Below, piece by piece: positions 8,484 through 40,772 of a stretch of DNA of 42,610 nt; the first letter of the stretch is position 1; every line of letters begins with the position of its first letter. A program made the translations under genes and the position numbers. The stretch is from an uncultured Gammaproteobacteria bacterium (GTDB taxonomy: Bacteria > Patescibacteriota > Patescibacteriia > UBA1558 > UBA10009): the NCBI GenBank assembly GCA_964588165.1, contig CAZPMS010000005.1:69411-112020 (forward strand), read 5' to 3'. The notes below the pieces were generated by a model. The model ran no database searches. It was not told the origin of the DNA and saw nothing but the letters and a program-made list of their open reading frames with translations.

Positions 8484-8801
8484 ATGCAGTGGTATATTGA
8501 TTTTATCCAGATGGTGGCCAATTGTCTGGGCACCTACCCATTTTTAGCGCCAACAGTACTTGGTTTGATTGGTTCGCCAATCATGGCCTGTTTCCCGGGA
8601 TTAAAGTGGTGGCAGCGACCAATAGCCTTTGTTTTGACGCCAATAGTGGGAACTGTTGTGTTTTATCTAGCCGAACTTGTAGTAGGCTTGGGTGTTGTAG
8701 TGTTTTTGGGTATAGGCATTTTTTCAGCAATACACACAGTATCTTGGCTTCTACCCAAAGCAATTTTTACCGGTGATTGGGGGTCACCTCAACCTGAGTA
8801 A
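8484..8801 (+). CDS. Small membrane protein (3 TM), function unknown
   Basis: 105-aa ORF with AAGGAGG 6 nt upstream of the ATG. Hydrophobic throughout. Followed by a terminator. Confidence 0.6.
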   Translation: MQWYIDFIQMVANCLGTYPFLAPTVLGLIGSPIMACFPGLKWWQRPIAFVLTPIVGTVVFYLAELVVGLGVVVFLGIGIFSAIHTVSWLLPKAIFTGDWGSPQPE

Positions 8802-16722: not shown

Positions 16723-17097
16723 TTATCGCTTTGCCAAAAGTGAGTCCTTGGGGATTATTAATTTAAATAATATTTCCGGCTCACCTTTCCTAACTAATGA
16801 CAGCATGTTGTTATAAGAAATAAAATTCAGTTGCTCTTCTACCTCCTTTCGCTCAGTTTCATTTAAGTTCATCTTTTCGAGTATCTCCAAAGCAACAATG
16901 AACTTGCTCAAAGCTTGAATGAATTTAATTTCTGATGGTATACCATGAGACAGATCGTTATCAGAATCAAGAGAGCTCTTATGGAAAAGAGTGGGGGATG
17001 TAATTTTCAAATAACTATATATTTCGGCAACGCTCTCTTCAATCACTTCCAAAACTGCTTTGTGTGCAAGTATCTGGCCATCCAATTTTAATGCCAT
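16723..17097 (-). CDS. Hypothetical 124-aa helical protein, function unknown
   Basis: AAGGAG lies 7 nt upstream of the ATG (TAAAGGAGATGCGTCATG). First gene of the minus-strand pair. Confidence 0.55.
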   Translation of the reverse strand: MALKLDGQILAHKAVLEVIEESVAEIYSYLKITSPTLFHKSSLDSDNDLSHGIPSEIKFIQALSKFIVALEILEKMNLNETERKEVEEQLNFISYNNMLSLVRKGEPEILFKLIIPKDSLLAKR

Positions 17098-19991: not shown

Positions 19992-21032
19992 TTAAAGACG
20001 CAAGGCGTGCATAGCAACGCTGAGGCCGGAGCCAAAGGCTACTACCACAACTAGTTCACCGGGCTTAATAACACCATTTTGCCAGGCTTCGGAAATTATC
20101 AGGCCGGTACTGGCGCTGCTTAGGTTGCCGCAGGTTTCCACGTTGCGATGGAAAGTTCCGGCAAAACCAGAGTGTTTTTTTTGAAAATTTTTCAAAAGCA
20201 GGTCCAGAGTCTTACCGCTAGGCTGATGTGGCACTAGATGTTTTATATTTGCCGGATCAATTCCGGTCTCTTTTATAAAATCGGTTAGACGTTGAACTAC
20301 TGTCCGACCGACAAATTTATGGACGCTATTGCCGTCCTGATCAAAACCATCGGGCGTATTGGCAATCTTATGAAGATTATTTCCTTGCGGTAGAGAAACA
20401 ACATCAAAGGCGATAAAGCTATCGGTAGTGTCTGTAGCCAGCAAGAAAGCCGAGGCTCCATCGCCGAAAAGGTTGCTGTGCTTCCAGTTGTCATACGGTG
20501 CTAAGGTTGTGTTTTTCTCTGCACAGACCACTAGCACTTTTTTGGCTGCGCCGCTTTTGATCAGGTTCCAGCCGGCAAAAAGAGCCATAACACCGGTCGG
20601 GCAGGCCTCCTGAACATCAAAGCAGCCAATGTTGCTGGGCTTGTCCAATAGAGCATCAAGTATATGGTCGGCCAGACTGGGATAGCCTTGATTGGTATTG
20701 CTGCCGCCAATAATAAAATCCAATTGATTGGCTTTTACATCGGCGTTATCTAAACAGTGGCGAGCAGCAATGATTGCCATTTGTTCCGCCGAACCGTCAA
20801 ATAAAATACGACTTTTGACTCCGGTATGTTGTTGCCAGTTATCTGCTACCCGGGCAATTTCATTATCGTCCCAGGGAGGACCATGGTCGAATAATTTGGT
20901 TTTGCCACCACCTGACATGAGGCGCTGGATAAACCGAATATTGGAGATAATGGAAAATCCCGAGTCTTGCTTGGGGTCGGTATGGCCCAAGCCAATGACT
21001 TTGCAACCCGATGGGCTAGGGTGGATAAGCAT
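19992..21032 (-). CDS. 3-oxoacyl-ACP synthase III (FabH/KAS III)-like condensing enzyme
   Basis: 346 aa. Cys-His-Asn triad contexts VQEACPTGVMAL, LVPHQPSGK, ETCGNLSSAS. C-terminus VVVVAFGSGLS. AGGAG lies 9 nt upstream. TTGACA-N17-TAATTT promoter. About 45-50% GC by eye. Confidence 0.8.
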   Translation of the reverse strand: MLIHPSPSGCKVIGLGHTDPKQDSGFSIISNIRFIQRLMSGGGKTKLFDHGPPWDDNEIARVADNWQQHTGVKSRILFDGSAEQMAIIAARHCLDNADVKANQLDFIIGGSNTNQGYPSLADHILDALLDKPSNIGCFDVQEACPTGVMALFAGWNLIKSGAAKKVLVVCAEKNTTLAPYDNWKHSNLFGDGASAFLLATDTTDSFIAFDVVSLPQGNNLHKIANTPDGFDQDGNSVHKFVGRTVVQRLTDFIKETGIDPANIKHLVPHQPSGKTLDLLLKNFQKKHSGFAGTFHRNVETCGNLSSASTGLIISEAWQNGVIKPGELVVVVAFGSGLSVAMHALRL

Positions 21033-21174
21033 TTTTAAGCTCTCCTGTTTTGTGAAGTTACAAGAATAGGGGTAAATTAATGAAAATAAGCATTTTTGTC
21101 AAGGTGTATTACTTGAGCTATGCTTTATTATATGAAACTATCTTCTTATAATTTGGAAGAAAAATTAATAAAAA

Positions 21175-21190
21175 AGTTCCATGTGGAACG
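21175..21190. other. Degenerate parS-like site AGTTCCATGTGGAACG
   Basis: 13/16 to TGTTCCACGTGGAACA, core GTTCCAtGTGGAAC. Lies in the AT-rich spacer between two GC-rich cassettes. Confidence 0.4.
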
Positions 21191-21239
21191 CCTTGGGCGA
21201 TTCAGGAACGTTTTTTACTTGCCCGACTTGGGGTAAGAT

Positions 21240-21269
21240 AAAAAACCCCGTGGTCTAAAGAGCCACGGG
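21240..21269 (-). terminator. Intrinsic terminator of the RidA-like gene
   Basis: CCCGTGG (21247-21253) pairs with CCACGGG (21263-21269). A-run on the plus strand is a T-run on the minus strand. Confidence 0.7.
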
Positions 21270-21284
21270 AAAATAATTTGTTGT

Positions 21285-22052
21285 TTATGAAATGGTTTTC
21301 TCAGCCACGATAACCCATTTCAGTTTTGAGCCAAAGGGTAGGCCCGAGACCATTCTTGCATCAATACTCGCATCAGTATCCCTAAGCGATTGGAAGGGCG
21401 TGAGGCCACTGCTCACGGCATTTGGGGTGAGGCTTAGTAATTCTTCATCTGGTTTGGTGAATAAAGCTGTTACCTTTTTGACATGACGTAAAGAAAGGTT
21501 GCAAATTTCAAGCAATTCGTTCAGGCGCTGAGCCATACTTTCTTGTTGCCTCCAGAACTCTTGATGAACGGGCTTGCCATCTGCAATTGCAGGAATGATG
21601 CCAGAGAAGTAATACCGCTCAACGTTGCCAAAAACAACCTTGATAACTGGTAAAAACGGAAAATCCCAGCCTGCTGGAATTGTGCCCCCTGGGATAATGA
21701 TTATGTTTGTTTCAGGTGCCAGATCAACAGTTAAGCTGATTAAAGCACCGTTAGGCATTTCCACTCGAGGTAGGGCATAAGCAGCTCGAGCTGGAAACCT
21801 CTTTTCGCCGCCAAACTTTTCTACATAGAGCTTGTTCAATGTCCCATAGGCATTGAGGTCATCAGCCAGATTGACAGTAACCCTAATAACTCTGTTGAGA
21901 GATAAACCGTTTCGCTTCAACGTATCAGCCAGTGATAAAAATGTTGACTTGATGTGAGTGGCTGGATTGTCGCTAAGACCTGAAGATACAATTAGCGGGA
22001 TTTGCGCAACACCCCCAACTGTCACGACCTGCGGAACAAAGCTTTCAATCAT
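21285..22052 (-). CDS. Tandem RidA/YjgF/L-PSP-like two-domain protein
   Basis: 255 aa. First half LADTLKRNGLSLNRVIRVTVNLADDLNAYGTLNKLYVEKFGGEKRFPARAAYALPRVEMPNGALISLTV fits the RidA pattern. The second half repeats the pattern more weakly. AGGAGG lies 7 nt upstream. Confidence 0.55.
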   Translation of the reverse strand: MIESFVPQVVTVGGVAQIPLIVSSGLSDNPATHIKSTFLSLADTLKRNGLSLNRVIRVTVNLADDLNAYGTLNKLYVEKFGGEKRFPARAAYALPRVEMPNGALISLTVDLAPETNIIIIPGGTIPAGWDFPFLPVIKVVFGNVERYYFSGIIPAIADGKPVHQEFWRQQESMAQRLNELLEICNLSLRHVKKVTALFTKPDEELLSLTPNAVSSGLTPFQSLRDTDASIDARMVSGLPFGSKLKWVIVAEKTIS

Positions 22053-27071: not shown

Positions 27072-29063
27072 ATGTCAATGAGCGTAATTTTTTCACTTGT
27101 GGCTGCAGCTGCAGCCATTATTTATGGAATTATTTTAATTCAAACGGTTTTTAAAAAACCGGCCGGTTCTGAAAAAATGCAAGAGATTGCTAAAGCCATT
27201 CAGGTGGGGGCTAAGGCCTATTTAAACCGCCAATATAAAACTATTGCTTTAATTGCTGTAGTTTTATTTGTTGTATTATGGTTGGTTTTAGGCATGGATA
27301 TTGCCTTGGGCTTTATTGTGGGCGCAGTTTTATCAGCTTTAACCGGTTATATAGGCATGAATGTTTCGGTAAAGGCCAATGTTAGAACCACTGAAGCCGC
27401 TAAAACAGGTTTAAAACAAGCTTTAACTGTAGCCATAAGGGGCGGAGCTGTTACCGGTTTTTTGGTAGTTGGCTTGGGCCTCTTAGGTGTGGCTGGTTTT
27501 TATGCTTTAGGCGGAAGCATCCATGCTTTAATTGGTTTAGGCTTTGGCGGTAGTTTAATTTCTATATTTGCGCGTTTGGGCGGCGGTATTTTTACCAAAG
27601 CAGCTGATGTAGGTGCAGACTTAGTTGGCAAGGTTGAAGCTGGCATCCCAGAAGATGATCCCAGGAACCCGGCTGTAATTGCTGATAATGTAGGCGATAA
27701 TGTAGGCGATTGTGCTGGCATGGCCGCTGACTTGTTTGAAACTTACGCTGTTACTTCTGTAGCGGCTATGTTACTTGGAGCCTTAGCTTTTGGCAATAAT
27801 GAAAACGCCATGGTTTATCCATTGGTGATTGGCGGCCTTTCTATAATCAGTTCCATTGTGGGCAGTTGGTTTATCCGCTTGGGTAAGAAAGAAAATATCA
27901 TGGGTGCTTTATATAAAGGTTTAATAGCTGCCGGTGTTATTGCAGCAATTTTGTTTTACCCTGTTACTAACTGGTTGATGAAAGGCGTTGTAGGCTCCAC
28001 CTTAAATTTATATTTGGCTGCATTGATTGGTTTAGTAGTAACGGCTTTAATGGTTTTTATTACTGAATACTATACTTCTACAAAATATAGGCCGGTAAAG
28101 GCTATTGCTAAAGCATCCGAAACCGGACACGGCACCAATATTATTACTGGCCTGGCTGTTTCTATGAAATCTACAGCTTGGCCGATGATAGTAATTGTAG
28201 CCGCCATTTTAGGGGCCTACTATCTGGCTGGTTTATATGGCGTGGCCATTGCGGCTATGAGCATGCTTTCTTTAACTGGGATAATTGTAGCCATTGATGC
28301 TTACGGCCCAATCACAGATAATGCCGGTGGCATTGCCGAAATGGCCGGCTTAGATGAATCTATAAGGAAGATTACTGATGAATTGGATGCCGTGGGCAAC
28401 ACCACTAAAGCAGTTACCAAAGGCTATGCCATTGCTTCGGCCGGATTGGCAGCTTTGGTTTTATTTTCTTCTTATGTTCAAGAATTTGCTGATAGAGGAA
28501 TTTATTTACAATTTCCTTTAGAAAATCCATTGGTATTGGTTGGCTTATTTATTGGTGGCCTATTGCCTTATATATTTGGCGCCCTAAGTATGGAAGCTGT
28601 GGCTAAGGCAGCTGGCGGTGTAGTAGAAGAAGTAAGAAGCCAGTTTAAAAATAACCCAGGTATTATGGAAGGCACAAGCAAGCCGGATTATTCTAAAACA
28701 GTAGACCTGGTTACTAAATCTGCTCTAAGGCAAATGATTGTACCAGCTTTAATTCCGGTAGTTGTTCCTATTTTGGTAGGCTTTATTTTAGGACCGGTTG
28801 CTTTAGGCGGTTTATTAGTTGGTTCGATTATTACTGGATTGTTTATTGCCCTTTCTATGACATCAGGTGGAGGTGCTTGGGATAACGCCAAAAAATATAT
28901 AGAAGAAGGCAATCATGGCGGCAAAGGCAGCGAGGCACACAAAGCAGCAGTAACAGGTGATACAGTTGGTGATCCTTATAAAGATACAGCCGGCCCGGCC
29001 ATTAATCCAATGATTAAGATATTGAATGTGGTAGCCCTTTTATTGGTAGCTTTATTGATTTAA
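27072..29063 (+). CDS. hppA: Membrane-integral H+-translocating pyrophosphatase, K+-independent type
   Basis: 663 aa, many TM helices. [56 protein letters not shown]. Confidence 0.95.
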
Positions 29064-29119
29064 AATAGTTTTTGAAAGAAACCGATCTTTTACATTTTTT
29101 GTACAACTAGGAGGAACTG

Positions 29120-29818
29120 ATGAACGACAGTATTATTGTTGCTTTAGATGGTATGCCCAAAAATCGTGCCTTGAAAATGGCCATGCTTCTTTCGGGCAAA
29201 CCAGGTTTGTGGGGATTCAAACTCAATGATTTATTGGGTGAGTATGGTTATTCGGTTATTGCTGAAATCGGTCAGTATGGTCGAGTGTTTGCCGATCCGA
29301 AGCAGCATGACGTGCCTCCAACTGGCATGAATTTCGGTCGCAAACTTTTAGAGTACTCACCAAGCCTGGTGACTGTGCATGCTTCGGCTGGGCCTGAATT
29401 CATGATGAAGTTTGGTGAGGGTCTGGGCGGTATGTCTAAGGTGCTGGCAGTGACTGTTCTTACCAGTATGAGCGAGGAACAGTGTCAACTTACCTATGGC
29501 GGTTCGGTCAAGGCGACCGTTCTCAAGTTTTCGAGATGGGCAAAGTTGGCTGGAGCACCACAGGTTGTGTGCTCAGCTCGTGACTTTTCGGTCTTCGATG
29601 ATAATTTGGAAATCAAAGATCTGAAAAAAGTGACGCCAGCCATTCGACCGTTGTGGTATCAGGAATTGAAACCCGACTTTGATTATCAGCGAAGGAAAAC
29701 CACGGCTAAGGATGCGGTTGAGGGTGGATCGGATTTGCAAGTGATTGGAACTCCGATCATTACGGCAGAAGATCCAGTTGAGGCACTTCGTTTAACTGTG
29801 GAGGAAACAAACGGCTAG
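29120..29818 (+). CDS. pyrF: Orotidine-5'-phosphate decarboxylase family protein
   Basis: 232 aa. IIVALD, DxKxxD as ADPKQHDVPPT, VTVHASAG, TPAIRP, VIGTPIITAEDP. AGGAGG lies 6 nt upstream. GC-richer than its neighbours. Confidence 0.65.
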   Translation: MNDSIIVALDGMPKNRALKMAMLLSGKPGLWGFKLNDLLGEYGYSVIAEIGQYGRVFADPKQHDVPPTGMNFGRKLLEYSPSLVTVHASAGPEFMMKFGEGLGGMSKVLAVTVLTSMSEEQCQLTYGGSVKATVLKFSRWAKLAGAPQVVCSARDFSVFDDNLEIKDLKKVTPAIRPLWYQELKPDFDYQRRKTTAKDAVEGGSDLQVIGTPIITAEDPVEALRLTVEETNG

Positions 29819-29841
29819 TTTTGGATCTTATACATAGTATT

Positions 29842-29872
29842 AAAAGCTTTGCTTTTTCAGCAAAGCTTTTTT
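29842..29872. terminator. Hairpin terminator after the pyrF-like gene
   Basis: AAAAGCTTTGC (29842-29852) pairs with GCAAAGCTTTT (29860-29870). T-run follows. Confidence 0.75.
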
Positions 29873-29873
29873 A

Positions 29874-29907
29874 AATAAAAAAACCGCCAAAGATGTATTT
29901 GACGGTT
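29874..29907 (-). terminator. Terminator of the 30814-29915 membrane protein gene
   Basis: AACCG (29882-29886) pairs with CGGTT (29903-29907). The A-run on the plus strand is a T-run on the minus strand. Confidence 0.5.
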
Positions 29908-29914
29908 AGCAAAA

Positions 29915-30814
29915 TTATTCTTGCCAAGGATTTTGTCCAAGAGCATCTTCAAGCAGCACAACCTCTCCCCGGCTTATTAGGTCTTTTAAAACACCAGGAC
30001 CAAGCACAAAGACTCGGGGTTTAGCTGAGGGATGGAGAGTTTCACAAGCATATGGATAACGTTGAATAACTACATCCTTAACCCAGTTCCACCAGTGGGC
30101 AGACAGATTTTTCCGAGCGATCCTTTTGGTCCAAGGCCTGATTATGCCAAGGGTAATAAAATTGGTTAAAATAAAAGTAAGCAACCAAATAATAAACAAA
30201 AGGTAATTCTGCTGGAAAAGGCTGGTTAGGCTGGCGGCTAAAAAGGTAACTATCATCCCCCGCCAGTAACTTTTAGGGATTCCTAAACGGAAATTTTGGA
30301 ACCAAGGCACGAAGTTTTTATTATGCCTGGCGGGTCCGTAGTAAGGGTGGATTAAAAACCAAATATAGTCTTCCACTACCACCAGTTCAATATAGCAGCA
30401 AGCTGCCAAGGTAAATAAAGCCCAAAAGGCCGGCCAATTCCACTCTTCCCCCATAAATAAAGTGTAGGCCGGAATAAAAAATATTACTCCGGCATAGATG
30501 GCCATCCAAATAAGCATGGAATTCAGGTGATATTCGGTAGCCCACTTATCCTGTCCGGTAATCCATCGGAAAAATTTGCTGTACCAGTGGCTAATAGAAA
30601 ACCGGTTGGTAAAAGTTAAGGCGCTCCAGCCAAATGGCCCTTCAATAGCTACTTCTTGCTTAGCAATTAGAATAGCCGGAATAATAATTGAAGCTGTTGC
30701 CAGTAGGGCATAAAGCAGATGGGCAACTTCTATTCCAAACATAACTACTCCGAAGTTTAGTTGTTTTTTATGTGCTGAATATAATAAATTATCAAAGAGT
30801 TTGGTTTTTGTCAA
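29915..30814 (-). CDS. Polytopic membrane protein (6-7 TM), function unknown
   Basis: 299-aa ORF rich in Trp/Phe/Tyr with multiple hydrophobic helices. A possible alternative start is Met25 (MFGIEVAHLLY). Confidence 0.55.
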   Translation of the reverse strand: MTKTKLFDNLLYSAHKKQLNFGVVMFGIEVAHLLYALLATASIIIPAILIAKQEVAIEGPFGWSALTFTNRFSISHWYSKFFRWITGQDKWATEYHLNSMLIWMAIYAGVIFFIPAYTLFMGEEWNWPAFWALFTLAACCYIELVVVEDYIWFLIHPYYGPARHNKNFVPWFQNFRLGIPKSYWRGMIVTFLAASLTSLFQQNYLLFIIWLLTFILTNFITLGIIRPWTKRIARKNLSAHWWNWVKDVVIQRYPYACETLHPSAKPRVFVLGPGVLKDLISRGEVVLLEDALGQNPWQE

Positions 30815-30816
30815 TA

Positions 30817-30855
30817 TAAAAAAAGAAACCCTGTCTACAAAAGTAAACAGGGTTT
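30817..30855 (-). terminator. Terminator of the 31480-30899 gene
   Basis: AAACCCTGT (30826-30834) pairs with ACAGGGTTT (30847-30855). The A-run at 30817-30824 is a T-run on the minus strand. Confidence 0.65.
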
Positions 30856-30898
30856 GCTGTATTCGCAGGGGGGTATGATTACCCCTGCCCAGGGCGGA

Positions 30899-31480
30899 TC
30901 AGACGAAGCTCAATTGTACGGATGGAAGGTTGAGGTGAATACCATCATAATCGAATTGATCGAAGGTCGAATAATTCAATCGCAGGATGGTTTCAACCTC
31001 TTGGAATTTTCCCGGATCCGATACGGTCCAGTAGTCGTTGAAGTATCCGCCGATGCTGCCAGCTGCCATCATATTGTCAGTTGGACAGTTCATCGTGAAT
31101 GCATTCTGATCGCAGCCTCCAAAACCAAATAGTTCGTTATTTTCCCAGTCATGCCAATAATCCGGCATGATTACATTTTCGCCGAAATCGCCGAGGGTAC
31201 TTTCATCATCAATATAAAAGGCGTTTACGGCTGTGTTGTTGACCGTTTCTGCAATCGGCAGAGGCGGGGCCAGCGACCCGGGCGAGTAGACGGCGTATTC
31301 GATGGTGAACGGATGCTCGTACATCAACGAGATACGGTCCAGCGCGACCGGAACATCAAAATCGGTGGAAGACACTTCAGAGCTTATGGCGAAGGAATCT
31401 TCAACCATTGGCGGCCCAGTATCAACGAACCAGGCGAGCAAGAAGAGCATCACAAACATCAGAATGACGTGTCGTTTCAT
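30899..31480 (-). CDS. Secreted orphan protein (signal peptide followed by a GPP motif)
   Basis: 193 aa. N-terminus MKRHVILMFVMLFLLAWFVDTGPP. GGAGG lies 9 nt upstream. About 50% GC (31/60 at 31021-31080). TTGACA-N17-TATTAT promoter with a ~110-nt leader. Confidence 0.6.
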   Translation of the reverse strand: MKRHVILMFVMLFLLAWFVDTGPPMVEDSFAISSEVSSTDFDVPVALDRISLMYEHPFTIEYAVYSPGSLAPPLPIAETVNNTAVNAFYIDDESTLGDFGENVIMPDYWHDWENNELFGFGGCDQNAFTMNCPTDNMMAAGSIGGYFNDYWTVSDPGKFQEVETILRLNYSTFDQFDYDGIHLNLPSVQLSFV

Positions 31481-31655
31481 ACTCGGTTTCCTCCGTGTGT
31501 TGGGTTGCTACTTCCCAGTGTTTTACCGGGATTATATTTATAATGTTTTGTTTAAAGGTTCTAATTGCGAATAAAGCATAATAACACAATATACTATCTG
31601 TGTCAATACTAAATTATAGCTATATTAATTTAACATAAGCTATTTTTTTTGGCAA

Positions 31656-31690
31656 ATAAAAAGAGCCCATCATTTATGAGTGACGGGCTC
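31656..31690 (-). terminator. Terminator of the 32304-31738 gene
   Basis: GAGCCC (31663-31668) pairs with GGGCTC (31685-31690). The A-run on the plus strand is a T-run on the minus strand. Confidence 0.65.
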
Positions 31691-31737
31691 CAGAGCTGTT
31701 CTTGCTACTTGCTACCGGATCGAAAGGGATCCATTCC

Positions 31738-32304
31738 CTACGTCGTTGATCCGGCAGATTGAAGCGAGCTTCTATTGAACGGGTTGTTGATGCTTCGAAT
31801 CAGCATGATAGTTTCAACCCCGGGCACTTCTTCGCCATAAACGGTATGATGGTTGTTGCGCGCGTTCTGCGAATTGCTCAGGCCTACCACGATCACAATA
31901 TCTTTGGCATCGAGCGACCTCATCAAATCACTTACGTGGTTAAACGTGCCAAGAATGGCGTAATCGCTAACGTTTGGAACCGGCCGTTCGTTTGAGTCGT
32001 TCAGATACTGCACATCGTTGAGCACAACGAGTTTGGCATCGAGCGACCCCATTAGTAATGTTTCGTCGTTGCCAGCAATCATCATGGTCTGGTTCAGACT
32101 CGGCACGATGTTTGCAACTTGACTGCCGTCAACCACCGCCTGGTTGAACGGGGTCGTAATCACGAAGTTGAACGGGGTCGTAATCACGAAATCGAATGTT
32201 GCCATGTTATCATCGGTCGCCCCGATGTAGGGTGGGCCGATGGCATGGCTCAAACCAATGACCATGAATAACATGGCCATCAAAACAAGGAGCAGATGTT
32301 TCAT
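31738..32304 (-). CDS. Secreted orphan protein (signal peptide followed by a GPP motif) with an internal 8-aa duplication
   Basis: 188 aa. N-terminus MKHLLLVLMAMLFMVIGLSHAIGPP. GGAGG lies 10 nt upstream. FDFVITTPFNFVITTPFN is encoded by a 24-bp tandem repeat. Confidence 0.6.
   Translation of the reverse strand: MKHLLLVLMAMLFMVIGLSHAIGPPYIGATDDNMATFDFVITTPFNFVITTPFNQAVVDGSQVANIVPSLNQTMMIAGNDETLLMGSLDAKLVVLNDVQYLNDSNERPVPNVSDYAILGTFNHVSDLMRSLDAKDIVIVVGLSNSQNARNNHHTVYGEEVPGVETIMLIRSINNPFNRSSLQSAGSTT
32144..32191. repeat. 24-bp tandem duplication inside the secreted-protein gene
   Basis: TTGAACGGGGTCGTAATCACGAAG (32144-32167) and TTGAACGGGGTCGTAATCACGAAA (32168-32191). In frame. Confidence 0.9.
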
Positions 32305-32444
32305 CCTATGCTACCTCCGTTTTTTTGCCTAGTTAATTAACCAGGCTATTTCCCCTAAAAGGGGTTGGGATTGAATGAACAAAATGTAAATTTTTTAAAA
32401 TTACTATTTAATTAAAACACATTTTTTTATTTTTTGCAAAGGTT

Positions 32445-32487
32445 AGCCGATAATCGGCTTGACAAACTGTTATGGGTAAATTACAAT
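32445..32487 (+). promoter_or_regulatory. tig promoter with abutting 15-bp palindrome AGCCGATAATCGGCT
   Basis: Palindrome at 32445-32459 overlaps the first T of TTGACA (32459-32464). 17-nt spacer. TACAAT at 32482-32487. Confidence 0.5.
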
Positions 32488-32520
32488 ATACCCTACATTT
32501 ATAAATAAATTTTTAAAATC

Positions 32521-33801
32521 ATGAAGATAAGTAAGTCACAACCAAAAAAATCAGAAGTGCTATTGGAGATTGAAGTATCTACCGATGAAGCCAGGCCGTT
32601 TTTAGAAAAAGCTGCAGCTAGGGTTTCTAAAAATACTAAAATAGAAGGCTTTAGGCCGGGCAAGGCGCCTTACCATATTGTTAAACAAAAGGTTGGTGAA
32701 ATGAATATTTACCAGGAAGCTCTGGATAATATTGTTAGCCATTTTTATATTGAAGCTGTAAAACAGGAAGATCTTGATGCCGTAGGCCAGCCTAAAATTG
32801 AAATGGAAAAAGTGGCCCCAGGCAATCCCATTGCTTTTAAGGCTACAGTTAGCCTAATGCCGGAAATAAAACTGGGTGATTATAAAAATATTAAAGTAGA
32901 AAAAAAGGAAATTAAAGTTGAAGATAATGAAATAGACAAATCTATTAATGATTTAAAAAAGATGCAGGTTAAGGAAGTTTTAGTGGCAAGAGAAGCACAA
33001 AAAGGTGATAGGGTGGAAGTTGATTTTGAAGTAAGCCTGGACAAAGTGGTTATAGAAGGCGGCCAAGGCAAAAAATATCCGATTGTTTTAGGCGAAGGCC
33101 AGATGATTCCCGGTTTTGAAGAACAAATAGAAGGCTTAAAGAAAAATGAAGAAAGAGAATTCAAATTAAAATTTCCAACAGAGTATCAAAATAAAATGGT
33201 GGCCGGCAAAGAATGTGATTTTAAAGTTAAACTGCTTGCCGTTTATAATCAAGAACTGCCTAAGGCAACCGATGAGTGGGCTAAAGGTTTAGGCGCAGAA
33301 AGCCTGGAAGATTTAAAGTCTAAAATCAGAAAAAACCTTGAAGACGAAAGAAAATTTCATGAAGAGCAACGAGTAGAAATTGAACTTCTAAAAAAGATTG
33401 TAGAACAGGCAGAATTTTCTGAAATCCCGGAAAATTTAATCCATTCAGAATCCCATAGAATGCTCCATGAATTTGAAGACAGCATTACCAGGCAGGGTTT
33501 AACTTTTGATGATTATTTAAAAAGCATTAAAAAAGATAAAAAAGAATTGGAAAAAGAATTCAAGCCCAAGGCAGAAGACAGGGTAAAAACTTCAATCATA
33601 ATCAAAGAAATTGGCGATGCTGAAAAAATAGAAGTTACAAAAGAAGAACTGGCAGAAGAAACTAAGAAAATTTTAACTCAAGCCCAAGGCAATCCAGAGG
33701 CAGAGGCTAATGTAAAAACAGACGGCTATCAAGGTTATTTAAAAACCATTGTCAGGAACAGGAAAGTTATTGAAATGTTAAAAAAGGAAAGTTTGAAATA
33801 A
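32521..33801 (+). CDS. tig: Trigger factor
   Basis: 426 aa. N-terminal ribosome-binding motif GFRPGKAPYHIV. Central FKBP-like region GMIPGFEEQIEGLKKNEEREF. Confidence 0.9.
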   Translation: MKISKSQPKKSEVLLEIEVSTDEARPFLEKAAARVSKNTKIEGFRPGKAPYHIVKQKVGEMNIYQEALDNIVSHFYIEAVKQEDLDAVGQPKIEMEKVAPGNPIAFKATVSLMPEIKLGDYKNIKVEKKEIKVEDNEIDKSINDLKKMQVKEVLVAREAQKGDRVEVDFEVSLDKVVIEGGQGKKYPIVLGEGQMIPGFEEQIEGLKKNEEREFKLKFPTEYQNKMVAGKECDFKVKLLAVYNQELPKATDEWAKGLGAESLEDLKSKIRKNLEDERKFHEEQRVEIELLKKIVEQAEFSEIPENLIHSESHRMLHEFEDSITRQGLTFDDYLKSIKKDKKELEKEFKPKAEDRVKTSIIIKEIGDAEKIEVTKEELAEETKKILTQAQGNPEAEANVKTDGYQGYLKTIVRNRKVIEMLKKESLK

Positions 33802-39010: not shown

Positions 39011-39802
39011 ATGAATTTCAATAAAGAAAAAAAATTAGCCAAAGAAATGGCACAAGAAGTGGGAATTTTTCTAAAAAAGAATTTTGATAAGTTTGATAGG
39101 TCCAAAGGTTTAAAGTTTAAGTCCAAAGACCAAATTCAAACTTGGGTGGATACGGCGGCCGAAAAAATTATTCTAAATAAAATAAAAAAGAATTTTCCTT
39201 CACATAAAATTTTATCAGAAGAAATTGGCCAGAATAATAAAAAGTCCGATTATTTTTGGATAATAGATCCGCTTGATGGTACTACCAATTATTCCATGCA
39301 CTTGCCGGCATATGGCGTTTCAATCGCTTTGGCTTATAAAAATGAAATGGTTTTAGGGGTAACCAATATTCCTGAACTTAATGAATTAACAGTTGCAGAA
39401 AGAGGCAAGGGCGCTTTTACCAATAGTAAAAGGCTAAAAGTTTCTAAACAAAAATTAATGAGTAAATCATTATTAACTTTTTGCCATGGAAGTTTGAATA
39501 ATGATATAAAGCGAGCTATTAAACTTTATTCAGAATTTAAACAAAAGGGCTTTGATTACCGTCAGATTGGCTGTGCGGTGATGGAATTTAATTTTGTAGC
39601 CGCTAGCCGGACTGAAGCCATAATGCTGCCAGGCGCTAATTTATATGATGTAGCTGCCGGAGCTTTAATTGTAAAAGAGGCCGGCGGCAGGGTAACAGAT
39701 TTCAAAAATAAAAATTGGACCATAGGGTCCAAAGATATTTTAGCCACCAACGGTCTGGTCCACGAGCAGATTTTAAAAATTATTTATAAAGCTAAATTCT
39801 GA
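39011..39802 (+). CDS. suhB: Inositol monophosphatase family protein
   Basis: 263 aa. SEE metal site (KILSEEIG), WIIDPLDGTTNY, and a downstream D (LYDVAAG). Confidence 0.85.
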   Translation: MNFNKEKKLAKEMAQEVGIFLKKNFDKFDRSKGLKFKSKDQIQTWVDTAAEKIILNKIKKNFPSHKILSEEIGQNNKKSDYFWIIDPLDGTTNYSMHLPAYGVSIALAYKNEMVLGVTNIPELNELTVAERGKGAFTNSKRLKVSKQKLMSKSLLTFCHGSLNNDIKRAIKLYSEFKQKGFDYRQIGCAVMEFNFVAASRTEAIMLPGANLYDVAAGALIVKEAGGRVTDFKNKNWTIGSKDILATNGLVHEQILKIIYKAKF

Positions 39803-40772
39803 TATAGCCTCGGGAAATACGATTAAGAGAGTCATTTAAGAAGAGTATTAGATTAAAGGTGAATTTTTTAATTAAGTATATTCTAGTTATTTTTTTAACT
39901 TCTTTTTTTAAAATAAATAAAACCTCTTTATAAGTTTTTTGATCAACAACTTCTTTGTATCCTTCTATAACTTTTCTATATAAATCAAGTGCCTTTTTCT
40001 TAGGAAGGCTATAAAATAATTGTTCTGAAAGGTATCGCAAGTCATTACTAAAATCATTTATAGATCCAGTTTTTGTTAGAAGTTCACAGTCAATAAAAGT
40101 AATATTTTCTGACTTTAAATTTATAAAAGTGTGTTGAGGTTTTAATTTTCGGTAGGTAATATTTAAGAGATGAAGTTTACCTAAGTGCCTGCCAGCTCTT
40201 TTAAAAATTTCAGTAGTTTTGTCGCAATCATTTTTTAAGGCCTTCTTAAGAGGTAAATCCTTGATGTATTCAGTTATTATAATCCTCCGGTTTTTACAGA
40301 AAAAAAGAGGTCGAGGCACTTTAATACCCTGCTGGAAGATAAACTTATGTAAATGGTAGTTATGATCTTTTAGGTGGGAAGTCCCTTTAAATTTAAATGG
40401 GGGCCGTGCCAGGCAAAACCATTTTAGTTTTGTATTCCTTTTTACAAATAGCTTTAAGGGGGGGTTGTTATTAAAATTAACTTTAACTAAAAAAGAGCCA
40501 CCATCATAGGCTCTATAATTCATCCCATCTCTAATTGTAATTAATTCAATTGACCGGTAATTTATTTTTTTTGATTTTAGATATTCCTTAACACATTGCT
40601 CTGTAATTTTCTTAACCTTTTTCTTGTAGTCAAAGAGTGTTAAGCCCGTAAGCTTATGAATTGTTTTGACCCAAAAGTTAGGCAAGTCTGATTCCATAAT
40701 ATTTTGAAATACCCATGAATAATCAGCTACCTCCCCATCTATTAACTTATATATTAAAATTAACCTTGTCAA
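39792..40772 (-). CDS. Protein-kinase-like fold protein (Kdo/WaaP/RIO-like) with a non-canonical catalytic loop
   Basis: 326 aa. The start at 40772 is TTG; an alternative ATG lies at 40697. LFVKRNTK (beta3 Lys-like), ITEYIKDL hinge. LHLLNITYRKLKPQHTFIN sits where HxDLKPxN is expected. FIDCE sits where DFG/IDFD is expected. Confidence 0.45.
   Translation of the reverse strand: MTRLILIYKLIDGEVADYSWVFQNIMESDLPNFWVKTIHKLTGLTLFDYKKKVKKITEQCVKEYLKSKKINYRSIELITIRDGMNYRAYDGGSFLVKVNFNNNPPLKLFVKRNTKLKWFCLARPPFKFKGTSHLKDHNYHLHKFIFQQGIKVPRPLFFCKNRRIIITEYIKDLPLKKALKNDCDKTTEIFKRAGRHLGKLHLLNITYRKLKPQHTFINLKSENITFIDCELLTKTGSINDFSNDLRYLSEQLFYSLPKKKALDLYRKVIEGYKEVVDQKTYKEVLFILKKEVKKITRIYLIKKFTFNLILFLNDSLNRISRGYIRI

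Follow-up and report, generated by a model that had tools for sequence, protein, structure and literature searches.

Marine SAR11 and Prochlorococcus, for example, have flexible or hypervariable genomic islands that occupy set positions among the core genes. Phage morons are autonomous promoter-gene-terminator cassettes of deviant GC content, and families such as the mycoplasma variable surface lipoproteins and the toxin precursor superfamilies combine a conserved signal with a hypervariable mature part. The locus presented here lies in a 42,610-nucleotide (nt) stretch of contig CAZPMS010000005.1 (GenBank assembly GCA_964588165.1), which is referred to as the window, and comprises two adjacent minus-strand genes, P1 and P2, located in the interval between the genes for an H+-translocating pyrophosphatase (PPase) and trigger factor (tig). 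P1 and P2 encode orphan proteins that share a hydrophobic N-terminal leader followed by the residues GPP. The explanation that we favor, with moderate confidence, is that they are surface proteins, either exported by Sec or anchored in the membrane, and belong to an accessory array that evolves fast and looks foreign.

Like the flexible islands of SAR11 and Prochlorococcus, the PPase-tig interval has conserved flanks, genome-specific content enriched in envelope or exported proteins, an occasional insertion sequence (IS), and deviant composition. Unlike those islands, it is tiny (0.07 to 3.5 kb, with 0 to 4 genes) and GC richer rather than AT richer than the backbone, its genes bear Shine-Dalgarno (SD) motifs in contrast to an SD-less backbone, and no variation within the population was seen. 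As in phage morons, P1 consists of a promoter, an SD motif, an open reading frame (ORF), and a terminator, and P2 of an SD motif, an ORF, and a terminator, both with a composition unlike that of their neighbors. Unlike morons, they do not lie in a prophage, the slot in the window is without phage or mobile genes, and no match was found in PHROG, IMG/VR, or INPHARED. Adjacent genes that are alike in their export leader only recall the mycoplasma lipoproteins and toxin precursors, from which P1 and P2 differ in having no lipobox, no phase-variable repeats or promoter tracts, and a family of three known members. Because the leaders of P1 and P2 are not conserved at the DNA level, they offer no recombination substrate.

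P1 and P2 encode orphan proteins

An earlier note on this DNA had reported two minus-strand ORFs of 193 and 188 amino acids (aa). Both are present (Table 1), and P1 and P2 are real, lineage-specific genes, with the minus-strand frames being the credible ones. The JGI and ENA gene callers took the minus frames in every assembly or contig, and the same ORF was called for P2 in six assemblies. For P1, the position of the SD motif supports a start at Met1 over the Met8 used by JGI. GC contents by codon position in both minus frames follow the order GC3 > GC1 > GC2. The note had also credited each gene with a promoter, a GGAGG motif, and a terminator of its own; the SD motif and a terminator-like hairpin were found at both genes, and a promoter was found for P1 only. 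The 20-bp near-palindrome upstream of P2 is a possible operator or hairpin of the 5' untranslated region, and a CCCC-TTTTA-GGGG hairpin lies immediately 5' of it. Searches for known RNA families in the 29- to 33-kb region gave chance-level matches only.

Past residue 30, both proteins are very acidic (pI 4.05 for P1 and 4.34 for P2). P1 contains 28 D+E residues versus 5 K+R residues and abounds in Asp, Phe, Tyr, and Trp (F/W/Y, 15%), as had been noticed previously, with exactly two Cys residues, 123 and 132 (C-x8-C), in GGCDQNAFTMNCP. P2 carries a perfect tandem duplication (Table 1) and an older internal repeat of approximately 43 residues (LMGSLDAK.../LMRSLDAK...; P = 0.006).

Judged by sequence searches, P1 and P2 are true orphans. 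Each matched only itself in a word-indexed search of 5.8e9 clustered proteins, and P1 matched only itself in an exhaustive phmmer search against 1.84e9 representatives as well; the scope for P2 is the word-indexed search together with smaller collections. Neither protein had a Pfam match at E values of ≤1, and only chance-level matches were obtained in NCBIfam, PHROGs, PADLOC, and PDB sequences. Structure prediction, a check that the earlier note had proposed, returned no confident fold; in AlphaFold2 single-sequence models (predicted local distance difference test [pLDDT] of 35.5 for P1 and 37.4 for P2), the confident part was the leader helix only (residues 2 to 20 in P1).

Table 1. Features of the P1/P2 locus, its neighbors, and related loci. 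Coordinates are those of the window unless preceded by the designation (L) of another locus.
Feature	Coordinates	Strand	Remarks
P1 coding sequence	30899-31480	-	193-aa acidic aromatic-rich orphan; N-terminal signal/anchor; C-x8-C; JGI 186 aa, ENA 193 aa
P1 leader	31409-31480	-	MKRHVILMFVMLFLLAWFVDTGPP; n-region, 15-residue h-region, GPP at residues 22-24
P1 Shine-Dalgarno GGAGG	31490-31494	-	Exactly 9 nt 5' of ATG
P1 promoter, sigma-70 type	31578-31606	-	TTGACA-17-TATTAT, extended -10 TG; 11/12 matches
Intrinsic-terminator-like hairpin 3' of P1	30826-30855	-	13-pair stem, then CTTTTTTT
P2 coding sequence	31738-32304	-	188-aa acidic Asn-rich orphan; predicted N-terminal signal peptide; internal repeats
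P2 leader	32230-32304	-	MKHLLLVLMAMLFMVIGLSHAIGPP; GPP at residues 23-25
P2 Shine-Dalgarno GGAGG	32314-32318	-	Exactly 9 nt 5' of ATG
P2 perfect in-frame tandem duplication, 24 bp	32143-32190	-	FVITTPFN x2; TRF score 96, copies 100% identical
Intrinsic-terminator-like hairpin 3' of P2	31662-31691	-	11-pair stem, 6 GC pairs, then TTTTATTT
Near-palindrome, 20 bp	32327-32346		GCCTGGTTAATTAACTAGGC; 8 nt 5' of P2 SD; unique in window, 0 expected by chance
K, 140-aa orphan	L019:2582-3004	-	Komeilibacteria MAG; start MNKIIGIIALMITVIAGMLCLGPPGQTIDDQAT; GPP at residue 22
H+-translocating pyrophosphatase, left flank	27072-29063	+	Pfam H_PPase, E 1e-273; GC3 0.33; no SD
pyrF-like orotidine-5'-phosphate decarboxylase	29120-29818	+	Pfam OMPdecase, 1.4e-23; NCBIfam PRK00230, 3e-36, below cutoff
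W299, 299-aa polytopic membrane protein	29915-30814	-	Several hydrophobic segments; GC3 0.41; own terminator 29907-29882
tig promoter	32459-32487	+	TTGACA-17-TACAAT, 11/12; in divergent P2-tig intergenic region
tig, trigger factor, right flank	32521-33801	+	Pfam Trigger_N, FKBP_C, Trigger_C
PPase-tig gap, 3.46 kb	29064-32520		Window; pyrF-like gene, W299, P1, P2
PPase-tig gap, 68-190 bp	L031, L030, L014, L011		More distant relatives
PPase-tig gap, 0.65 kb	L009
PPase-tig gap, 1.2 kb	L029		208-aa protein of no known family at L029:6158-6784 (+)
PPase-tig gap, 2.0 kb	L010		Three genes
PPase-tig gap, 2.35 kb	L012		669-aa MutS-domain-V protein at L012:4088-6097 (+)
PPase-tig gap, >2.7 kb	L020		rve-type IS and DUF4143 protein, L020:1251-2564 (-)
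PPase-tig gap, 3.0 kb	L019		Four genes, including Y1 (IS200-like) transposase-like gene, L019:239-787 (+)
Cys-rich zinc-finger-like protein pair	L019:1799-2110, L010:6966-7232	-	E 7e-8 to each other; not in window
SD-bearing gene, 105-aa unknown	8484-8801
SD-bearing gene, 124-aa unknown	16723-17097
SD-bearing fabH-like ketosynthase gene	19992-21032
SD-bearing Rid-family-domain gene	21285-22052		255 aa

The PPase-tig interval is a hypervariable accessory slot

By sequence comparison, the organism is a marine Komeilibacteria-like Patescibacterium. Its trigger factor is 67 to 68% identical to those of a “Candidatus Komeilibacteria” metagenome-assembled genome (MAG; locus L019) and two Patescibacteria MAGs, with which the genes for NusA, PPase, trigger factor, and AP endonuclease are collinear. 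A previous guess that the organism lives attached to another cell fits this assignment.

The interval was compared across 12 distinct related loci, and its content was unrelated between genomes. No counterpart or remnant of the pyrF-like gene, W299, P1, or P2 was found in the slot of any relative. Since PPase and tig are nearly adjacent in more distant relatives (Table 1) and the content of the interval is without counterpart, the island is the entire 29064-32520 interval. It does not consist of just two genes between backbone genes, as had been supposed, and W299, which had been taken for a backbone membrane protein, is part of the variable interval.

In two relatives, L019 and L010, three minus-strand genes lie beside tig in the same order, encoding a signal- or transmembrane (TM)-bearing protein (212/252 aa), a Cys-rich protein (103/88 aa), and a signal-bearing protein (140/141 aa). 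The order in the window (W299, P1, P2, and tig) is analogous, and the slot genes exceed the backbone in GC3 in all three lineages. The Cys-rich proteins share the motif C-x2-C ... G-[LM]-KG-x-YH-x-x-CF and have weak matches to DUF2175 and zf-PARP. No similarity was detectable between the signal-bearing pairs of L019 and L010.

The differing genes in the slots of L020, L019, L012, and L029 indicate that the site behaves as an insertion hotspot, and P1 and P2 could be moron-like promoter-gene-terminator cassettes dropped there by a phage, an IS, or another mobile element, with products that serve the element (exclusion or receptor masking). Such an origin would suit two self-contained units of deviant GC content in a slot whose content is unrelated between genomes and which in relatives holds a rve-type transposase with a DUF4143 protein (L020) or a Y1_Tnp-like gene (L019), the only two slots with transposase-like genes. 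However, no integrase, transposase, tRNA, or convincing flanking direct repeats or att sites were found in 29064-32520, and the searches of PHROGs and PADLOC, tblastn of P2 against INPHARED phages and PLSDB plasmids, and IMG/VR scans with P1, an alignment of P2 with K (the L019 protein in Table 1), and W299 yielded nothing. Furthermore, the ordered three-gene array shared by L019 and L010, with its homologous Cys-rich protein (E = 7e-8), argues for inheritance of the array over repeated independent insertion. Delivery of P1 and P2 by a mobile element is considered unlikely.

Of the remaining slot genes, the pyrF-like gene also looks foreign, with an AGGAGG SD motif and a GC3 of 0.47; it stands alone in the slot of an organism that is likely without de novo pyrimidine synthesis. 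W299 had no match in Pfam, NCBIfam, PHROG, PADLOC, the related loci, or IMG/VR. Its listed TTG start at 30814 is the first triplet of a TTGACA motif (30809-30814) directly after the P1 terminator. The likelier true start is the ATG at 30742 (275 aa, MFGIEV...), at which the ENA call begins, 72 nt downstream of the listed TTG.

Sec-like leaders share a GPP signature

The leaders have the layout MKRH-VILMFVMLFLLAWFV-DTGPP in P1 and MKH-LLLVLMAMLFMVIGL-SHAIGPP in P2, with a basic n-region (MKRH or MKH) followed by one apolar run of 15 residues in P1 and 15 to 16 residues in P2. No further TM-like segments were found in either protein. Both N-termini contain the elements of a Sec-type signal, and they resemble the Sec/signal peptidase I (SPase I) preproteins of monoderms in their basic n-region, single 15- to 16-residue h-region, and Gly/Pro breaker at its end, with small -3/-1 residues in P2 (SHA/I and IGA/T, with the slash marking the site) and an acidic remainder that fits the positive-inside rule. 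They differ from such preproteins in that P1 and its L019 relative K are without a well-placed AXA-type site and may stay anchored, and from generic Sec signals in that GPP is invariant and its distance from Met1 is fixed.

Cleavage sites were judged by the (-3,-1) rule (small neutral residues, 3 to 8 residues past the h-region, and no Pro at +1). By this rule, P2 has candidate SPase I sites at SHA/IG (21/22) or IGA/TD (29/30) and is probably cleaved by SPase I and possibly released. The first acceptable site in P1 is SFA/IS (31/32), and because it lies 12 residues past the h-region, P1 may be cleaved late or kept anchored. A common export or processing signal had been proposed from the leaders; the Sec-type parts occur in both proteins, and dedicated processing was not borne out, as there is no consistent signal-peptidase site at the GPP of P1, P2, and K. 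Signals of other pathways were not found. No lipobox ([LVI][ASTVI][GAS]C) stands at the end of the h-region, the first 120 residues of P1 and the whole of P2 being free of Cys, and the GMLC of K does not fit a lipobox. A type IV pilin or pseudopilin signal is not present, since the hydrophobic stretch precedes the Gly and no G/F-T-L-x-E-like motif occurs in P1 or P2. There is no RR of a Tat twin-arginine motif (S/T-R-R-x-F-L-K) in the MKRH or MKH n-regions, and the C-termini (...LNLPSVQLSFV and ...SLQSAGSTT) are without the LPXTG-like motif, hydrophobic tail, or basic end of a sortase signal.

The window proteins, 10,883 residues in all, contain only three GPP tripeptides, two of which begin at residue 22 of P1 and residue 23 of P2, and the chance of GPP falling inside a 9-residue window is approximately 1e-3 per protein. 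A search for further leader-GPP proteins, as the earlier note had recommended, covered approximately 250 kb of candidate phyla radiation (CPR) sequence (168 signal-like ORF starts in related loci and those of the window and its extension). GPP followed the h-region in only three of the surveyed starts, those of P1, P2, and K, all of which are encoded on the minus strand in the PPase-tig slot. The K gene adjoins tig and is divergently transcribed from it, exactly as is P2, with AAGGAGG 5' of a GTG start and a TTGACA/TACTAT promoter. K has a pI of 4.1, its GC3 is 0.83 versus 0.49 in its tig, and it matched only itself in the word-indexed search of 5.8e9 proteins, recurring only within its own population.

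The first 45 residues of P1, P2, and K are mutual best matches compared to 41 other signal-like N-termini (scores of 43, 52, and 37; null, 22.5 ± 5.5; null maximum, 33 to 38), and in all three proteins GPP is followed by [DE]-D-x(1,2)-A-[TI]. On these sequence statistics, the shared leader-GPP signature exceeds chance, in agreement with the weight given to it by the earlier note. Between P2 and K, the junction segment scored 41, versus 15.4 ± 3.2 for shuffles, and the post-GPP parts showed weak collinear similarity (shuffle test, P = 0.01). By BLASTP alone, the pair was not significant (E = 0.019 pairwise and 0.38 in a small database); the case for homology is drawn from position, leader, and shuffle tests. 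P2 and K are probable positional orthologues, with approximately 25% identity, compared to 68% for tig. P1 has the leader only in common with P2. Paralogy of P1 and P2 beyond the leader was considered and found unsupported, as similarity past the leader is nil; the two proteins are otherwise dissimilar, as had been described.

The leader-GPP-acidic motif could also be a dedicated sorting or processing signal that is read by specific CPR machinery, such as a specialized peptidase or a surface-attachment system. GPP begins at almost the same residue (22, 23, and 22) in three proteins that cannot be aligned elsewhere, the same post-GPP motif follows each time, and it has been kept between marine and groundwater lineages in which the mature parts are so much less conserved than tig. 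A polytopic membrane protein, W299, is encoded directly downstream on the same strand. However, the three known members occupy one slot, which common descent explains equally well. No co-occurring candidate for a processing enzyme was found, and W299 is without a homologue at the K locus or elsewhere. In Sec signals, Gly and Pro ordinarily serve as helix breakers where the h-region ends, and the positional equivalents in L010, J141 and J252, have signal-like N-termini without GPP. A dedicated signal is rather improbable. The same applies to a joint reading in which the slot would be an inherited, hyper-diversifying surface-protein array that carries such a lineage-specific sorting signal and serves as the host/phage-interface module of an episymbiont; the distinctness of the array (GC3 rich and SD led) would then come from cassette exchange within the CPR gene pool or from separate SD-dependent translation.

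Composition and SD motifs set the slot genes apart

The description of the island as the most compositionally deviant part of the window was upheld. GC contents are 48.5% in P1 and 49.7% in P2, compared to 36% in the window, and their GC3 values (0.58 and 0.64) are the top two of the 39 listed ORFs, with the next at 0.47 and the backbone at approximately 0.30. Among 500-bp windows, the GC maximum was at 31001-31500 (0.50).

SD motifs were scored as GGAG or GAGG at positions -4 to -20, a motif that is present in 6% of random 17-mers. They were present in 7 of 38 window genes, which are, but for one, the seven richest in GC3, namely, the four listed at the end of Table 1, the pyrF-like gene, P1, and P2. 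Mean GC3 was 0.48 in the SD-bearing genes and 0.30 in the others (Mann-Whitney test, P = 1.5e-6; P = 5e-5 without P1 and P2). No SD motif was found upstream of dnaA, dnaN, nusA, PPase, or tig. The same SD/GC3 split was seen in ten further genes of the contig (L033) and between slot and backbone genes in L019. A second GC-rich patch (0.45 to 0.48), at 19992-22052, contains the fabH-like ketosynthase and Rid-family-domain genes, both SD led, and is probably another acquired segment.

These distributions suggest that the presence of an SD motif marks acquired genes in this organism. The GGAGG motifs of P1 and P2, read earlier as a sign of good genes, are also a mark of foreignness. A subgroup of Parcubacteria is reported to be without an anti-SD sequence in 16S rRNA (PMC9297842), and the SD/GC3 split is in keeping with such a loss. 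The 16S rRNA gene of this organism was sought on the contig and is not present there; only the start of a 23S rRNA gene was found, in the part of the contig that follows the window (L035:15010-16947), where a tRNA and a gene encoding a 23S_rRNA_IVP domain come before it. As no 16S gene lies upstream of this 23S start, the rRNA genes are apparently unlinked.

At least eight metagenome assemblies of marine or seawater origin contained the same DNA, with the island 100% identical; JGI 3300009375 and related samples are among the marine metagenomes with the contig. Island depth equaled flank depth (approximately 5x) in all runs. The earlier note had proposed presence or absence polymorphism as a check, and no deletion joints or variant islands were seen, even at 80% likeness. 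For the points within the island at which contigs break off (31103 [twice], 31382, 32241, and 32296), low depth and the 24-bp duplication in P2 are the simplest explanation. Elsewhere in the window, at position 40458, inside the minus-strand ORF at 39792-40772, there are two G's fewer than in L035 and L036 from the same population, and the gene is called as 326 aa in the window and as 175 + 106, 175 + 81, or 301 aa in other assemblies, which points to a frameshift polymorphism or to a difference in assembly.

P1 and P2 could be nonfunctional or decaying remnants of horizontally acquired DNA that were kept by chance in a clonal population and remain untranslated in an SD-independent host. Homologues were found nowhere, no confident fold was predicted, the metatranscriptomes yielded no RNA of this organism, and the foreign composition and SD motifs stand amid an SD-less backbone; the island has zero polymorphism and no sign of selection, and the perfect 24-bp duplication in P2 would be a recent sloppy change. 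A remnant would nevertheless have had to retain two intact ORFs of approximately 190 codons at approximately 50% GC (open-run chance of approximately 1e-4 per frame, by a (61/64)^190 estimate), both with an ATG, an identically spaced SD motif, a full signal-type leader, and a terminator, and it would have done so at a depth equal to that of the flanks in all runs. K, the probable positional orthologue of P2, is intact with its high GC3, which implies long-term coding constraint. Decay is judged an unlikely explanation.

Proposed export of P1 and P2 and the points against it

If P1 and P2 are surface proteins of an accessory array, as we favor, their products would enter the Sec pathway by way of the N-terminal signal, after which SPase I would probably cleave P2, and P1 may undergo late cleavage or remain attached through its leader. 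In both cases, approximately 165 residues that form an acidic domain would lie outside the cytoplasmic membrane. The proteins would form a small family that is defined by its N-terminus only (15 to 19 hydrophobic residues, GPP at residue 22 or 23, and an acidic patch ending in Ala), with the rest having diverged beyond recognition. By inference, their most likely role would be to meet a host cell or phages on the cell surface, subject to pressure to diversify. The array itself may be inherited and fast evolving, or it may be replenished time and again from a gene pool of higher GC content. An effector function of P1 and P2, as once suggested, is speculation.

Several observations weigh against this explanation. 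A canonical cleavage site 3 to 8 residues past the h-region was not found in P1, and none that fits well was found in K. The promoter scan upstream of P2 gave nothing at ≥9/12 matches. If the organism is without an anti-SD sequence, the GGAGG motifs argue for foreign origin and not for translation. No similarity was detectable between P1 and P2 outside the leader (P = 0.99), and the low pLDDT values of the models leave folding of the mature parts without support. With zero variation in the island among the eight or more assemblies, there is no sign of purifying selection and no dN/dS ratio. Metatranscriptomes from the same studies contained nothing of this organism over 15 kb and no contig of it over 25 to 40 kb and are uninformative on expression rather than negative. 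Finally, the in-register antisense frame across P1 contains a single stop.

That last observation bears on whether the genuine genes could be those of the plus strand (ORFs 30854-31132 and 31151-31543), with the minus-strand ORFs as their shadows, the outcome that the earlier note had named as refuting. This is very improbable, since RNY symmetry and sense-strand codon usage would be expected to produce the near-open frame and its coding-like G1 and Y3 values, while the plus ORFs start at a TTG inside the P1 terminator hairpin or at an ATG without an SD motif, have no promoter found by the scan, were picked by no gene caller, and encode Arg/His/Gly-rich products that are typical of antisense translation and without signal-like or other recognizable features, and the plus frames across P2 are broken by 5 to 13 stops.

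Implications for Patescibacteria

Patescibacteria are generally regarded as living in attachment to other cells, and little of what they display on their surface is known. Such genomes commonly encode orphan exported proteins, whose location in variable islands is of a known kind, and P1 and P2 add little alone. A new mechanism is not demonstrated; what the locus adds that is useful and can be tested is the slot, the leader signature, and the SD/GC3 split. A fixed PPase/tig slot with turnover of its content offers a route to cataloguing candidate interaction proteins across CPR genomes. The leader-GPP-acidic signature spans marine and groundwater lineages and can be searched for genome-wide. 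The split between an SD-less backbone and SD-bearing, GC-rich genes bears on translation start in Parcubacteria without an anti-SD sequence and on the recognition of acquired genes.

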